A DNA stretch of 45,835 nt from Patescibacteria group bacterium (lineage in GTDB: Bacteria > Patescibacteriota > Patescibacteriia > UBA9934 > GWF2-40-263): NCBI GenBank assembly GCA_041661745.1, contig JBAZTR010000001.1, forward strand, positions 252,471 to 298,305. The letters run 5' to 3'. Position 1 is the first letter of the stretch. Each line of letters opens with the position of its first letter. Shown one piece after another: positions 18,680 to 36,817 of this stretch. The notes beneath the pieces are model-generated. The model saw only the letters and a program-made list of their open reading frames with translations. It searched no databases and had not been told where the DNA came from. The position numbers and the translations under genes are program-made.

Positions 18680-19306
18680 TCAGCACCACTCCTCGCTGTC
18701 GATGAAGTTGGCGATGACCGCCTGGGCGTAGCTCTTGCGCAGGAGGTGGCCCCACTCCGGATCGTCCGTGGCCGCCAGGTCGCGGACCAGGATGGCACGG
18801 AAGACCGCGAGGCCGACAGTGGTGATGATGAGCTGTCGCACGGCCTTGTTGTAGCCCCTGTGGTTGTGGTGAAGCCAGGCTACGGCCTCGGCCTCATCGA
18901 TCTCGTCGAGACACGCGACACCGTACAACCTGACCATCGTCTCCCGGATCGTGCGGCGGGCATCGTTGCCCAAGGGGACGCGGTCCAGAAGGTTGCGGAG
19001 TTCGTTCTGGCTGGGGTTAGACCCAAGGTTCGCGACCTCGATGTGTACCTGTTTCGGATCAAGAGGCTTCACATCGCAGTCGCAGTCCACCGGATCGCAA
19101 ACGTCGAATCCGCCGCGTCCGATGTAGCTTTCCAAATCCTTGAGGTTGGAGAGAAGAACGCGGCGGAAAGCGGCCAGCTGCTCGACGATTTCCCACGGGC
19201 AGCACAGAATCTTCCGGTAGAGGTTGAAACCGGGCCATTCTTCCTTGACGGTCCGAAACCGCTCGAGGTGGTTGTGGGCGTGGCTGGTGTGGTCAGTGCT
19301 GGTCAT
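18680..19306 (-). CDS. Hypothetical protein of high-GC cassette 1 (208 aa; weak DinB-like His motifs)
   Basis: ATG at 19306 lies 10 nt after GAGGAG. GC-rich third codon positions. Balanced amino-acid composition, unlike the R/V/G/A-rich antisense ORF. His cluster at the N-terminus (HTSHAHNHLERF) and WLHHNHRGY near the C-terminus resemble the DinB-fold HxxxHRGQ motif. No search was run. Confidence 0.6.
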   Translation of the reverse strand: MTSTDHTSHAHNHLERFRTVKEEWPGFNLYRKILCCPWEIVEQLAAFRRVLLSNLKDLESYIGRGGFDVCDPVDCDCDVKPLDPKQVHIEVANLGSNPSQNELRNLLDRVPLGNDARRTIRETMVRLYGVACLDEIDEAEAVAWLHHNHRGYNKAVRQLIITTVGLAVFRAILVRDLAATDDPEWGHLLRKSYAQAVIANFIDSEEWC

Positions 19307-19385: not shown

Positions 19386-19411
19386 CCTAGCCAAAATCGT
19401 GTTTAATGGGG

Positions 19412-19445
19412 TTACGAAACTACGAAAAACTACGAAACTACGAAA
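19412..19445. repeat. Four tandem CTACGAAA(aa) units in the divergent intergenic region
   Basis: ttacgaaa ctacgaaaaa ctacgaaa ctacgaaa. The array lies just upstream of a TGgTTTAAT extended -10 (19447-19455) for epmA and about 30 nt from the cassette 1 -35. Confidence 0.85.
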
Positions 19446-19479
19446 TTGGTTTAATGATTTAGTACCCCTCCCTTTTTTT

Positions 19480-22178: not shown

Positions 22179-22239
22179 AGTCGCGAGTCTCCCGCCTTTG
22201 GCGGGACCCCGCCAAAGCGAAGCGGCGGCGGGGCGATTC
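22179..22239 (+). repeat. tRNA-linked GC-rich multi-hairpin repeat, copy A
   Basis: agtcgcgagtctCCCGCCtttgGCGGGaCCCCGCCaaagcgaagcggcGGCGGGGc. Related copies lie at 22425-22480, 30881-30940 (minus) and 30986-31055 (minus). Confidence 0.8.
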
Positions 22240-22420: not shown

Positions 22421-22568
22421 GTCGAGTCGCGGGTTTCCCGCCTCTGGCGGGACCCCGCCAAAACGAAGCGACGGCGGGGCAATCCCCGCCTTCGGCTCCA
22501 TCCCCCTTCGCCCAGCGAACGTGGGGCTTCGGAGGGATGTCCCCAACGAAGCTCGAACCTGTTTTTTG
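22421..22568 (+). ncRNA. Candidate structured RNA / repeat copy B plus a GC-rich extension downstream of tRNA-Thr
   Basis: Repeat core at 22425-22480, then further hairpins (ccccgcc-ttcgg..., catccc...gggatg, cccagcgaacgtgggg), ending in ctcgaacctgttttttg. No protein-like ORF. Not recognisable as tmRNA, SRP RNA, RNase P RNA or 6S RNA by eye. Confidence 0.35.
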
Positions 22569-29821: not shown

Positions 29822-30469
29822 CTACTCACCCAGCTCGTCGAGGGCCCGACGTGTGGTGTAGCGCGAGATGCCGAGCTTGCGACGCAGGCGCCGGACTTCG
29901 ACAACGGGCCGGCCAACACACTCGGCGATGACCGTGTCGGGCAGGCGGCCGAGAAAGACCTCGACCTTGTTCTCCCAGTTGTTGAAGTCCTCGAGGGCAT
30001 ACTCGATCCCGATCTGGGCGAAGGCCGCCCGGATGTTGCCGAAGTGCACGATGGCCGATCGGTAGATCCCGGCGTGCTGTCTCACGAGCTCCGAGGGACG
30101 GAGAGTCTCCTTCCCACGCAACCTCTCCAAGGTCTGGCAGTTGCAGTAGAAAGGGACCTCGACCCACGTTCCGTGCTGATCGGAACACTTCAACTTGGGA
30201 TCGAAGCGGAAACCGCAGCCGGTGCAGGCGGTGGTGAAGTCGTTGGGATCGTTGTTGAACCCGCGAAGGATCTCCGTCGGGGTCATCCTCCGAGAGCACT
30301 TCGGGCAGACTCCCTTGGGCTTGTACTGCTCGTTGCGGAGATCGCCGATCAGCTGCAGGCGAAGGCCGAAGATGTGCGCCTGGACCTGGTGGGCTCGCTG
30401 TGCCAGGGAGAGACGCGGCTCCAGTCTCTGTTCGTGCCGCAAACCAAGACCCATGGAAAGACTGGGCAT
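29822..30469 (-). CDS. Hypothetical protein of high-GC cassette 2 (215 aa; Cys4 zinc ribbon plus C-terminal HTH-like segment)
   Basis: ATG at 30469 lies 6 nt after GGAG. CPKC...CTGC knuckles. The C-terminal LPDTVIAECVGRPVVEVRRLRRKLGI looks like a helix-turn-helix. GC-rich third positions. The other frames and strand give R/P-rich nonsense. Confidence 0.6.
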   Translation of the reverse strand: MPSLSMGLGLRHEQRLEPRLSLAQRAHQVQAHIFGLRLQLIGDLRNEQYKPKGVCPKCSRRMTPTEILRGFNNDPNDFTTACTGCGFRFDPKLKCSDQHGTWVEVPFYCNCQTLERLRGKETLRPSELVRQHAGIYRSAIVHFGNIRAAFAQIGIEYALEDFNNWENKVEVFLGRLPDTVIAECVGRPVVEVRRLRRKLGISRYTTRRALDELGE

Positions 30470-30543
30470 GTTCAACTCCATTCAACGTTGATGAGGGGAT
30501 GCTACACGGCTCGTGTAGTAGAGTCTGCTTCAAGCAGCGTTTG

Positions 30544-30572
30544 AATCTAACAAAAAAAACAAAAAAAGTCAA
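30544..30572 (-). promoter_or_regulatory. Promoter of cassette 2
   Basis: Minus strand has TTGACT (30572-30567), a 17-nt spacer and TAGATT (30549-30544), with TGt upstream of the -10. It shares a ~25-nt block with the cassette 3 promoter. Confidence 0.55.
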
Positions 30573-30575
30573 GGA

Positions 30576-30610
30576 TAAACAAAAGACCCCCGTTGTAAAA
30601 CGGGGGTGGT
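30576..30610 (-). terminator. Hairpin terminator immediately upstream of the cassette 2 promoter
   Basis: Minus strand reads ccacccccg-ttttacaa-cgggggtcttttgttt. Confidence 0.65.
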
Positions 30611-30642
30611 AGATATGTTTAAAAAATACACTTACTAACAAG

Positions 30643-30770: not shown

Positions 30771-30845
30771 TGGTGCGCTGGGAGGGGATCGGACCCTCGA
30801 CCTCGGGCTTAAAAGGCCCTCGCTCTACCACTGAGCTACCAGCGC
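30771..30845 (-). tRNA. tRNA-Lys (anticodon UUU), CCA encoded
   Basis: Reverse complement: gcgctgg-ta-gctcagtggtagagc-g-agggc-ctTTTaa-gcccg-aggtc-gaggg-tccgatc-ccctc-ccagcgc-ACCA. Confidence 0.85.
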
Positions 30846-31072
30846 AAATTCTGGTACTGGTAGCGAAGTGGTAATTATACCACTGCCCCGCCGTCGTTGG
30901 ACTTTGGCGGGGTCCCGCCATAGGCCTCCGAAGGCGGGAAGCTACCAGCGCAAATTCTGGTACTGGTAGCGAAGTGGTAATTATACCACTGCCCCGCCGT
31001 CGTTGGACTTTGGCGGGACGAGGTCCACCGAAGTTCGCCTCGAACGAAGGTGGAAGCTACCAGCGCATATTG
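30835..31072 (-). repeat. Tandem repeat (106 + 115 + partial 17 nt) duplicating the tRNA-Lys 5' end, its leader, an extended -10 promoter and GC-rich repeat copies C and D
   Basis: A 77-nt block gctaccagcgcaaattctggtactggtagcgaagtggtaattataccactgccccgccgtcgttggactttggcggg is identical at 30835 and 30941. A third gctaccagcgca begins at 31056. Confidence 0.9.
30874..30882 (-). promoter_or_regulatory. Extended -10 promoter (TGgTATAAT) of tRNA-Lys, with a duplicate copy at 30980-30988
   Basis: Minus strand reads agTGgTATAAT. The hexamer ends 28 nt upstream of the tRNA 5' end. An identical copy lies 106 nt further upstream. Confidence 0.5.
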
Positions 31073-35288: not shown

Positions 35289-35383
35289 AGGTGCTTTAAA
35301 TTATAGAGGAAAACAGTGTTTATGAAAAGATGAGATAAAAAATAGGTCCAAGTCACACTAAGCGCGACGAGGACCCGGTGGAC

Positions 35384-36334
35384 CTAGGCAGGAAGGACTG
35401 CCAGGATACGGAAAGCGAGATGGCCGACCCCGCCATCACTCCAGACCTTGTGAACAGCGGAAAGACCGCCTTCCTCAGAGTTACCAAAGACGAGACGGAA
35501 GCCGCGGTCGGAGTTGTTTTCACACCACTCCCAGTTCTTGATGGAACCGAGGTTGGGCAGGTTAGTGCCCAAGGCACGGTTGGCGAGGACGAAGAGGTTG
35601 CCACACCAGTTCATCTCCTCAACCGTGGGCAGACGAACAGTGTCGGAGGGTAGTCCCCAGACCTCGGCCAATTCTGTCAGCCGACCGTCGTGCAGGGTAC
35701 TCCAGTCCGTATTGGAGCAGCGCTGGAGATCAAGGAGCTTGGCCACCTTGTCGTCCGGGCCGTAGCTGACCAGGTCGTTCCAGTTGGGCTTGGGTCTTGT
35801 TTCGATCAGGATCCAGCAACCAAGCAAAGGGCGACGTTCGATCTCGCTAGGGTGTTTCAAGTTCTCGCCCCAGGCCGGGAAGATGTACTTGTCACCATGG
35901 CCGCTGCCGACCACCTGTTCGAGTTCTCCAGCCGGGCAGAAGACGGGGATGAGACCGAAGTCTACACAGGCTCGAGCTGTGGCCGAGGTGATGGTCGGAA
36001 ACTCCGGGAAACACATCTCCCAACCGTTGGCCTCGAGTGCATAGTTCCAGAAAGTCCGCGGGTTCAGGCCGCGGATAAGGAGCTCACCCTTGGCCGAAAG
36101 AGAGAGGAGCGGGATGGTTGGCACGGCCGTGAACGGGTCGGCGAGGAAGACTTCGAGGGCCTGGTGCGTCTCGTCCGGTGAGCCGTTGAGCCGCGCAGCG
36201 AGGCGTCTGACCAGAGGCCAGTTCTTTCCGAAGAACAGAGCCTGCACCACCTCACGAGAGAGGTGATTCGGGTCGTCGGCGGGAAGGTCCGCTCTTTCGA
36301 GCAGATCCCGGAACTGTCTGTGTGTCACGATCAT
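35384..36334 (-). CDS. Hypothetical protein of high-GC cassette 3 (316 aa; C-terminal part weakly FGE-sulfatase/DUF323-like)
   Basis: ATG at 36334 lies 5 nt after AGGAAGGAGA. GC-rich third positions. C-terminal motifs RLPTVEEMNW, GSIKNWEWC, GFRLVFG and LAFRI resemble RLPTEAEWEY / GNVWEW / RGGS / GFR of the FGE-sulfatase fold. No search was run. Confidence 0.6.
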   Translation of the reverse strand: MIVTHRQFRDLLERADLPADDPNHLSREVVQALFFGKNWPLVRRLAARLNGSPDETHQALEVFLADPFTAVPTIPLLSLSAKGELLIRGLNPRTFWNYALEANGWEMCFPEFPTITSATARACVDFGLIPVFCPAGELEQVVGSGHGDKYIFPAWGENLKHPSEIERRPLLGCWILIETRPKPNWNDLVSYGPDDKVAKLLDLQRCSNTDWSTLHDGRLTELAEVWGLPSDTVRLPTVEEMNWCGNLFVLANRALGTNLPNLGSIKNWEWCENNSDRGFRLVFGNSEEGGLSAVHKVWSDGGVGHLAFRILAVLPA

Positions 36335-36458
36335 GATGATCTCCTTCCTATCCGATTCACCCATCTTTACCCGATTGGCTATTATGGGATTCACGAATGG
36401 TCGGTGACTACGCAGGATACCGCCCGCGCGCGGTGTGCCCCACTTGAGGCAACGGTTT

Positions 36459-36487
36459 ATTATGAAGAAAAATAACAAAAAAGTCAA
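36459..36487 (-). promoter_or_regulatory. Promoter of cassette 3
   Basis: Minus strand has TTGACT (36487-36482), a 17-nt spacer and CATAAT (36464-36459). A GC-rich leader of about 120 nt follows. Confidence 0.55.
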
Positions 36488-36491
36488 GGAT

Positions 36492-36524
36492 AACAAAACC
36501 GCCCCGTTTAACGGAGCGGCTTTT
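36492..36524 (-). terminator. rpmA terminator, abutting the cassette 3 promoter
   Basis: Minus strand reads aaaagccgctccg-ttaaa-cggggcggttttgtt. Confidence 0.65.
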
Positions 36525-36535
36525 ATTATTGGGGA

Positions 36536-36817
36536 TTATTTACTCGGTTCAACACGAGCGTAGGTGCGGAGCTGTAAGACACCATGAAAATTTTTGGCGT
36601 GCTTTTTCATGAACTTAACAATGCCGTCAACCGCGGCGTACAAAGTATCATCCTTACCGCGGCGAACATTGGCACCCGGATGGATTTTGGTACCGCGTTG
36701 GCGAACAATAACCTGACCGGCGCGGGTCTTTTGACCATCGCCGATTTTGGTGCCTAAACGTTGTCCTTGGGAATCACGACCCAGCTGTGTAGAGCCGGCC
36801 GCCTTTTTATGAGCCAT
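36536..36817 (-). CDS. rpmA: 50S ribosomal protein L27
   Basis: [24 protein letters not shown]...[21 protein letters not shown] at 36817; the longer track ORF is an upstream extension. Confidence 0.9.

Follow-up and report, generated by a model that had tools for sequence, protein, structure and literature searches.

A probably fixed member of a Patescibacteria family of diversity-generating retroelement variable proteins is encoded in a GC-rich, moron-like cassette between rpmA and a nifU-like gene

To our knowledge, the variable proteins of diversity-generating retroelements (DGRs) represent the most extreme natural protein diversification known outside adaptive immunity. The Patescibacteria, or candidate phyla radiation (CPR), are very rich in DGRs, and the DGR targets of these bacteria are, as far as we know, almost entirely uncharacterised and mostly without domain annotation. 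According to a passage in PMC10907252 that cites Paul et al. (2017), the CPR targets carry a domain of the C-type lectin (CLec) kind either by itself or with an AAA ATPase to which it is fused or adjacent. Most of the variable region (VR) classes of CPR have no assignable fold, and one class matches the AAA domain of Midasin (PMC5758913). The Treponema denticola variable protein 1 (TvpA, structure 2Y3C) is regarded as a binder and not an enzyme, and a DGR of the same genome diversifies it (PMC5758913). Here we analysed a 45.8-kb stretch of the Patescibacteria contig JBAZTR010000001.1 (the window, to which all coordinates refer unless a locus is named), in which a GC-rich cassette, read on the minus strand, lies between rpmA and a nifU-like gene and encodes a protein of 316 aa. 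The results suggest that this protein is, on balance, a solitary member of a Patescibacteria family of DGR variable proteins with a CLec domain of the formylglycine-generating enzyme (FGE) type, fixed and without a DGR, in a GC-rich unit resembling a phage moron.

The preliminary description of this DNA regarded the protein as an orphan, but relatives were found. A word-indexed protein search retrieved four close homologues with 48-60% identity, and a profile search of 1.84 billion cluster representatives retrieved 248 with E<=1e-3 (26 of them with E<=1e-30), all of which match the conserved domain (profile positions ~71-295). A second word-indexed search with an 87-sequence profile added one further protein. 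Through a metagenome contig scan, we found 10 loci with homologues at 32-43% identity; tblastn gave E values of 1e-27 to 7e-44 for nine of these (2e-29 to 7e-44 for L005, L009 and L011/L012) and 2e-12 for the truncated L014. When the five close members were aligned, the N-terminus of ~70 aa could not be aligned, and the conserved domain extended from residue 72 to the end. The N-terminal 200 aa had been described as unrecognisable, which holds for the ~70 lineage-specific residues, whereas residues 72-316 form one conserved domain. In the window, the N-terminal extension of ~71 aa (36122-36334) is lineage-specific and predicted to be helical, and the domain of aa 72-316 (35387-36121), assigned to the FGE-type CLec class, is common to the Patescibacteria DGR-target family. 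The ratio of nonsynonymous to synonymous substitution rates (dN/dS) was 0.20-0.35 over residues 72-273 in the comparisons with estimable dS (L001, L002 and L004) and ~0.9 in the N-terminal extension. The domain is under purifying selection, and the gene is a real one.

Among the relatives in the metagenome loci, tblastn detected a second short match to residues 280-314, located 300-400 nt downstream of the gene, in L005, L009, L011/L012 and L014. Comparison of this template repeat (TR) with the VR, which in the DGR-linked relatives is the last 125-145 nt of the gene, showed that most of the mismatches lie at TR adenines: 22 of 29 in L005, 24 of 28 in L009, 22 of 29 in L011 and 14 of 17 in L014. 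The same was found in L095 (P0136, 23% identity), where 18 of 20 mismatches are at TR adenines and bAvd lies beside the pair. The TR and VR of the proven pairs are 79-86% identical overall, and their last 40-45 nt are nearly identical. The bAvd gene (PF22296) directly follows the TR on the opposite strand. An RVT_1 gene is present in L009. L014 has a match resembling a reverse transcriptase (RT), L005 has a short fragment of one, and in L096, which overlaps L095, RVT_1 adjoins the same target gene. The adenine-specific mismatches at five distinct loci, the bAvd genes and the reverse transcriptase in some of the loci identify these relatives as bona fide DGR targets. In five of the ten metagenome loci, the TR is absent from the available flanks.

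The TRs encode YGS(E/D)N-RL-I-VG-N-x-(E/D/K)-N-GGLADV-N-R-N-W-H-D-N-x-N-D-N-I-GFRVLAVL, in which the AAC codons correspond to the varying positions. The DGR-linked VRs end in ...GGCTTCCGCGTCCTGGCAGTTCT, and the matching TR position reads GGCTGTT. Judged from the sequences, the variable region is framed by an invariant scaffold made up of the motifs RLPT-EE-NW, WEWCEN, RLVFG, GGL and GFRVL. The window protein carries the corresponding RLPTVEEMNW, NWEWC, GFRLVFG and LAFRI, which were previously read as FGE-sulfatase/DUF323 motifs; all four are in the translation, and the fold class received some support from weak Foldseek matches, but as an enzyme signature the reading fails, and they would instead be the scaffold that frames a DGR variable region. 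An N-terminal AAA_5 ATPase fusion is present in 9 of 109 family members, and the L095/L096 target adjoins separate AAA_5 and transglutaminase-core genes. The arrangement of a CLec domain with an AAA_5 ATPase has reportedly been interpreted as a sensor-transducer. The window protein thus resembles the CPR DGR targets by direct homology, as it shares with them the same profile, the scaffold motifs, the position of the VR and the phylum, and some family members have AAA_5. It differs in that TR, Avd, RT and ATPase are all absent next to the genes of its five-member clade, in that the gene is a single-gene island among housekeeping genes, and in its private helical N-terminus. The family may correspond to the 'UVR4/Midasin AAA' class (PMC5758913).

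Some further observations were made at the loci of the relatives. Three to four tandem units of ~9 nt (CCCTTGG / CCTTAG / CCCTAG) directly follow the stop codon or VR end of family members (L009 1720-1752, L011 6714-6747, L005 4282-4310, L014 ~240-275, and after the stop in L006 and L010) and are absent after the TRs. This element may serve target recognition on the VR side. In the window clade, the stem of the terminator (GGGTCCTTGGTTCTTGAAACC..GGACC) appears to descend from it. The DGR locus of L095 and L096 has two target genes (L095 14-955 and 5782-6723) that are 100% identical in nucleotides and inverted relative to each other; the pair flanks Transglut_core and AAA_5 genes, with the RT at one end and the TR and bAvd at the opposite end. 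One would not expect a single DGR to have two targets with the same VR, and an assembly collapse is possible. L011 (6001-7425) and L012 (1420-2844) have a target-TR-bAvd arrangement without an adjacent reverse transcriptase, directly followed by an isoleucyl/valyl-type tRNA synthetase gene, and the RVT_1 open reading frame (ORF) of L009, with 237 aa, looks truncated. Partial DGRs seem to be common in the family.

In the window protein, aa 274-306 (35417-35515) align with the VRs of L005, L009, L011 and L014 and are the equivalent of the DGR variable region. The variability among the five close homologues is concentrated in this segment, at the positions equivalent to the TR AAC codons, where the window protein has F279, N285, E288, H295, V297, V303 and H305; the dN of the stretch is roughly double the value for the remaining domain. 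It is followed by the conserved C-terminal AFRILAVL (35393-35416), which matches the VR 3' end of the DGR-linked relatives, a sequence resembling an initiation of mutagenic homing (IMH) site. The 3' end of the window gene reads GCTTTCCGTATCCTGGCAGTCCT, and the nucleotides of its IMH-like end have drifted from the near-invariant TTCCGCGTCCTGG of the DGR-linked copies. In the DGR-linked relatives, the VR is rewritten from the nearby TR by adenine-specific mutagenic reverse transcription. The window copy has kept the scaffold and the VR-equivalent stretch, has most likely lost diversification and would then be a fixed cytoplasmic ligand binder and not an enzyme. We found neither a signal peptide nor a transmembrane or hydrophobic segment in the 316-aa protein by inspection, so the protein is probably cytoplasmic.

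The gene belongs to a self-contained predicted transcription unit at 35335-36487, made up of a promoter, a 5' untranslated region (UTR) of ~118 nt, a strong ribosome-binding site, the 316-aa ORF and a terminator. In this Patescibacteria chromosome, which has Ca. Magasanikbacteria as its kin, the unit is an insertion that separates the rpmA terminator from the nifU promoter. The intrinsic terminator of rpmA (36495-36523, a 13-pair stem followed by a T run in the terminator scan) is native and lies outside the insert. Right after it, the promoter scan found the sigma-70-type promoter proposed previously (36459-36487), composed of TTGACT (36482-36487), a T-rich spacer of 17 nt and CATAAT (36459-36464), with 10 of 12 consensus positions; the region contains seven promoter-like sites compared to 1.4 expected. 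The design of TTGAC[T/A] with a T-rich spacer also occurs upstream of the homologues in L001, L002 and L004. The coding sequence (CDS) extends from ATG 36334 to the stop codon TAG at 35384-35386 (35384-36334). Both this ORF and the Shine-Dalgarno sequence AGGAAGGAG (36341-36349), 6 nt ahead of the ATG, are present as described before. One gene caller chose the alternative start ATG 36364 (326 aa, P0001) and another gave 316 aa (L098, in an independent European Nucleotide Archive (ENA) assembly); ATG 36334 is favoured because of the position of the Shine-Dalgarno sequence here and in the homologues, which have GGAG or AAGGAGG 5-11 nt ahead of their ATG. The cassette ends with an intrinsic terminator (35335-35376), in which a GGGTCC...GGACC stem encloses an inner stem and is followed by a T run. 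Its fold has -20.3 kcal/mol with a z score of -3.4 compared to shuffled sequences, and its outer stem is kept in L001, L002 and L003; the inner stem-loop is so long that the terminator was not picked up by the simple scan. Downstream of the cassette, the native nifU promoter (35300-35328) consists of TTTTCA, a 17-nt spacer and TATAAT.

The flanking genes were identified by Pfam as L27 (PF01016, E 1.9e-31) and a NifU-like domain gene (PF01106, E 2.1e-23), which supports the position between rpmA and a nifU-like gene reported earlier, and the chromosomal neighbours include pyrG, rpmA, nifU, mraY and ftsW. The pyrG gene places the organism in Patescibacteria, with Ca. Magasanikbacteria nearest at <=77% identity. 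A GTDB genome scan found no relatives; the source genome and its close kin are absent among the species representatives. The CDS has 60% GC in a window of 44% GC, and the GC content at its third codon positions (GC3) is 0.73, compared to 0.37-0.48 in host genes. In the Uhrbacteria relative L094, which is without the cassette, rpmA, a terminator hairpin, nifU, a membrane protein gene and mraY follow each other with 91 nt between rpmA and nifU, and the rpmA-nifU gap of L059 is 150 nt. An empty site was also found in one of the groundwater metagenomes that contain the window sequence, where the contig of a relative of ~80% identity joins 35290 to 36587 with 115 nt between them. These results show that the GC-rich block is an insertion between the rpmA terminator and the nifU promoter.

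The close homologues are likewise islands of 57-65% GC in contigs of 40-45% GC, except L003 (~50% GC), with the promoter style and the GGGTCC...GGACC terminator in common and in different contexts: ftsK adjoins the gene in L001, and HD and SET-domain genes adjoin it in L002. Phage morons are promoter-gene-terminator units of deviant composition inserted between genes. The cassette resembles them in having its own promoter and terminator, a single ORF and deviant GC and GC3, in splitting otherwise adjacent genes and in lying in different contexts in relatives, and it differs in being located in a bacterial chromosome with no phage genes nearby; no PHROG match was found for the cassette family. 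Two other origins were considered and set aside. An integron cassette was rejected because the unit owns a promoter and a terminator (no attC or integrase search was made). An RNA-mediated retrocopy, suggested by the fact that the GC-rich block spans the predicted transcript, was rejected as unnecessary, as promoters and T-tracts are AT-rich anyway and the homologous cassettes carry similar promoters.

For the domain, scans with NCBIfam, PADLOC and PHROGs of the protein and its family found nothing, and Pfam gave no family for the window protein at E<=10. In the PDB sequences, phmmer and two profile searches retrieved no FGE-fold protein, giving either chance bacteriophytochrome matches at E ~1 or none. 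An AlphaFold model from 5 sequences was unusable, with a predicted local distance difference test (pLDDT) score of 54, and a model from 87 family sequences (AF2) reached a pLDDT of 85.4, mostly >90 over residues 72-316 and 53-64 in the N-terminal extension. Foldseek searches against the PDB with this model returned TvpA (2Y3C) as the top match (prob 0.99, E 2.3e-3, TM-score 0.31-0.34), and FGE-fold proteins dominated the top matches, with TvpA followed by CarF, FGE, its paralogue pFGE, EgtB, SenA and PvdO. In BFVD, a SUMF-like protein of Microcystis phage LMM01 was matched with prob 1.0. The Foldseek check proposed earlier agrees in part with the fold class, as FGE-fold proteins lead at low TM-scores and E>=2e-3. 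The model weakly points to an FGE-type C-type lectin fold for the domain. The likeness to TvpA, the best structural match, consists in one FGE-type CLec domain with variable residues in a C-terminal segment that ends in a conserved strand; the two proteins differ in that their identity is ~10% with no profile-level sequence match, and in that a signal peptide is absent from the window protein, as are a TR, RT and Avd from the ~63 kb around its gene. The PF03781 proteins (FGE, pFGE, EgtB, PvdO) are similar in motif order and, by the weak Foldseek matches, in fold class, and differ from the window family, which has no match to this profile, no catalytic cysteine pair and a hypervariable segment where the active site would be.

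Whether the window copy is still diversified can be weighed against several negative results. Repeat finding and short-word BLAST found no TR in the 45.8-kb window, and tblastn with family-linked queries found no RT or Avd in the window or its flanks better than E 0.3. A further ~17 kb of flanks from the ENA assembly, bringing the total to ~63 kb, contained no TR, RT or Avd, no RVT_1 or bAvd was among the called genes of L098 and L100, and no TR was found in the flanks of the close homologues L001 and L002. An active target could nonetheless be remote, with a DGR elsewhere in the genome diversifying its C-terminal 100-130 nt in trans. The protein has proven targets among its homologues, and its scaffold is complete; its 3' end has the VR-type GGCAGT and not the TR-type GGCTGT; remnants of the CCTTGG-type element follow its stop codon, as they follow VRs; and half of the metagenome loci are equally devoid of a TR in the available flanks. 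Remote targets are known in other DGRs, for example seven in Treponema (PMC5758913). Against this, a TR would be expected to show as a second contig because proven TR/VR pairs are so similar, but at >=80% likeness to the VR stretch exactly one contig was found in each of the two source metagenomes, at ~20x depth, and none of the TR type. The VR stretch is also identical in three assemblies (X1, X2 and ENA), which include samples of 2018 and 2022, where contigs hide minority variants, and the drifted IMH-like end and the ~63 kb without RT, Avd or TR speak against a remote DGR as well. We consider this explanation unlikely, and keep it in view since the ~63 kb covered are a small part of the genome and contigs hide minority variants. 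The abrupt change of composition at the block could be read as an assembly chimera or contamination foreign to the genome. Identical junctions occur in three independent assemblies, one from ENA and two from Logan, whose samples date from 2018 and 2022; in both Logan assemblies the depth across the junctions is even (20.4x and 19.2x), so the insert is not an artefact; the ORF is also framed by a host-style promoter and terminator, and the homologues are similar islands in other low-GC contigs. The probability of a chimera is accordingly close to nil.

A second pair of explanations would give the protein or its leader another function. The domain could belong to a divergent catalytic member of the FGE-sulfatase superfamily (FGE, an EgtB/OvoA-like sulfoxide synthase or a PvdO-like enzyme), as the Foldseek matches include FGE, pFGE, EgtB, SenA, PvdO and CarF, and as the motifs resemble RLPTEAEWE, GNVWEW and GFR, which we take to be those of PF03781. 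No match to PF03781 was detected in the five close homologues (E<=10) or in 109 remote members (E<=0.01), so the expected FGE/DUF323 assignment is refuted at the sequence level. The catalytic copper-binding cysteine pair of FGE is Cys336/Cys341, near the C-terminus; the window protein has no cysteine after C271, and the segment of that pair is the hypervariable VR here, which makes an enzymatic FGE role very unlikely. Within the domain, conservation is lowest in the segment that corresponds to the active site, and the best match, TvpA, is without formylglycine-generating activity (PMC5758913). The protein is probably not an enzyme. The leader (36335-36452), placed from the consensus promoter, had been proposed as an unusually long, GC-rich cis-regulatory RNA. 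Its length of ~118 nt agrees with the ~120 nt given earlier, and the stems quoted then are present; it is only moderately GC-rich (55% GC). A riboswitch or other cis-regulatory RNA could be argued from a leader that is long for a small genome, from several possible stems, including one able to block the Shine-Dalgarno sequence and AUG, and from two predicted 5'-proximal hairpins (36433-36453 and 36410-36429), which L001 also has, a C-G pair of one being replaced there by U-A in a compensatory change. Rfam 15 gave no match over the leader at gathering level or E<=10. The minimum free energy was -43.5 kcal/mol, compared to -39.7 +/- 4.1 in composition-matched shuffled sequences, which gives z -0.95; of 200 such sequences, 31 folded as well or better, and the hairpins had z scores of -0.14 and -1.06. 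The leaders of L001, L002 and L004 are ~135, 85 and 45 nt long, and their alignment with the window leader is limited to the initial 25-50 nt that follow the -10 box, and BLAST alignments between the loci start inside the CDS. The two hairpins are common to two sequences only, too few to assess covariation, and the leader alignment gave no basis for a covariance model. We regard a regulatory RNA as improbable, and the simplest reading is an ordinary 5' UTR with 5'-terminal hairpins. 5'-terminal stem-loops protect mRNAs, and these hairpins may stabilise the transcript. A small hairpin also opens the leaders of L002 and of a second GC-rich cassette in the window.

The reading of the protein as a fixed, DGR-less binder has points against it too. 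The ~63 kb covered belong to a genome of several hundred kb, and the read evidence consists of assembled contigs from which minority variants are dropped, so that diversification at a low level would go unseen. Structural similarity is weak, with TM-scores of 0.3-0.4 and no PDB match at E<=0.001, and sequence profiles reach no FGE-fold protein. The transcription start comes from the consensus promoter only, and a search of RNA-seq runs found none containing the stretch.

The second GC-rich cassette (cassette 2, 29822-30641, minus strand) contains a Cys-rich ORF of 219 aa with several CxxC pairs, ~62% GC and a GC3 of 0.83, which has no match in Pfam or NCBIfam. Its terminator, promoter and leader start (30528-30590) are 71% identical over 63 nt to those of the rpmA-nifU cassette (36443-36505). 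A further block of ~60% GC, cassette 1 (18680-19306, minus strand), carries an ORF of 208 aa with its own TTGACA/TATCTT promoter and terminator, for which neither a Pfam or NCBIfam match nor a homologue in the loci compared was found. An ACGAAA-rich repeat (ggttacgaaactacgaaaaactacgaaactacgaaattggt) at 19405-19452 is 93% identical over 44 nt to L001 4366-4409, where it forms one arm of a long inverted repeat; besides the cassette CDS, it is the only DNA common to the window and L001. A perfect direct repeat of 78 nt (30834-30911 and 30940-31017, also 31052-31071) overlaps the 5' end of tRNA-Lys, and a GC-rich repeat of 41-59 nt (GCCTTTGGCGGGACCCCGCCAAAG...) occurs at 22179-22237, 22425-22483 and 30884-30925, beside tRNA genes at two distant places and in both orientations. 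The segment 22137-22196 gave a weak Rfam tRNA match (34 bits, gathering 29) and was not called by ARAGORN; a tRNA that has degenerated or been truncated may thus lie upstream of tRNA-Gly and tRNA-Thr. Among the GTDB records with a pyrG of 70-75% identity to that of the window, many (L017, L019, L023, L024 and others) are titled 'uncultured Gammaproteobacteria bacterium' and are probably mislabelled records of metagenome-assembled genomes.

These results place a family without Pfam annotation, comprising at least 248 clusters, in the DGR-target class with an FGE-type CLec domain, with VR/TR proof in five distinct loci; they open no new category, and they remove a false lead, as the leader no longer counts as a candidate riboswitch and an FGE activity of the protein is very unlikely. 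They also describe a family member without a retroelement that is conserved, under purifying selection and present among core genes as a single-gene island with predicted transcription of its own, and which may be a case of a diversified binder that became fixed and was handed on. We tentatively raise a wider scheme, which we think rather doubtful: the five-member clade would be a new type of vehicle, consisting of horizontally moving promoter-to-terminator cassettes that carry a DGR-matured, frozen (or trans-diversified) CLec binder, settle in intergenic sites just after terminators and are independent of the DGR that shaped the binder, and the other two GC-rich cassettes of the window, of which cassette 2 has the terminator/promoter module in common, would belong to the same mobile pool. 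If this were true, such cassettes would spread frozen DGR-matured binders between Patescibacteria genomes.

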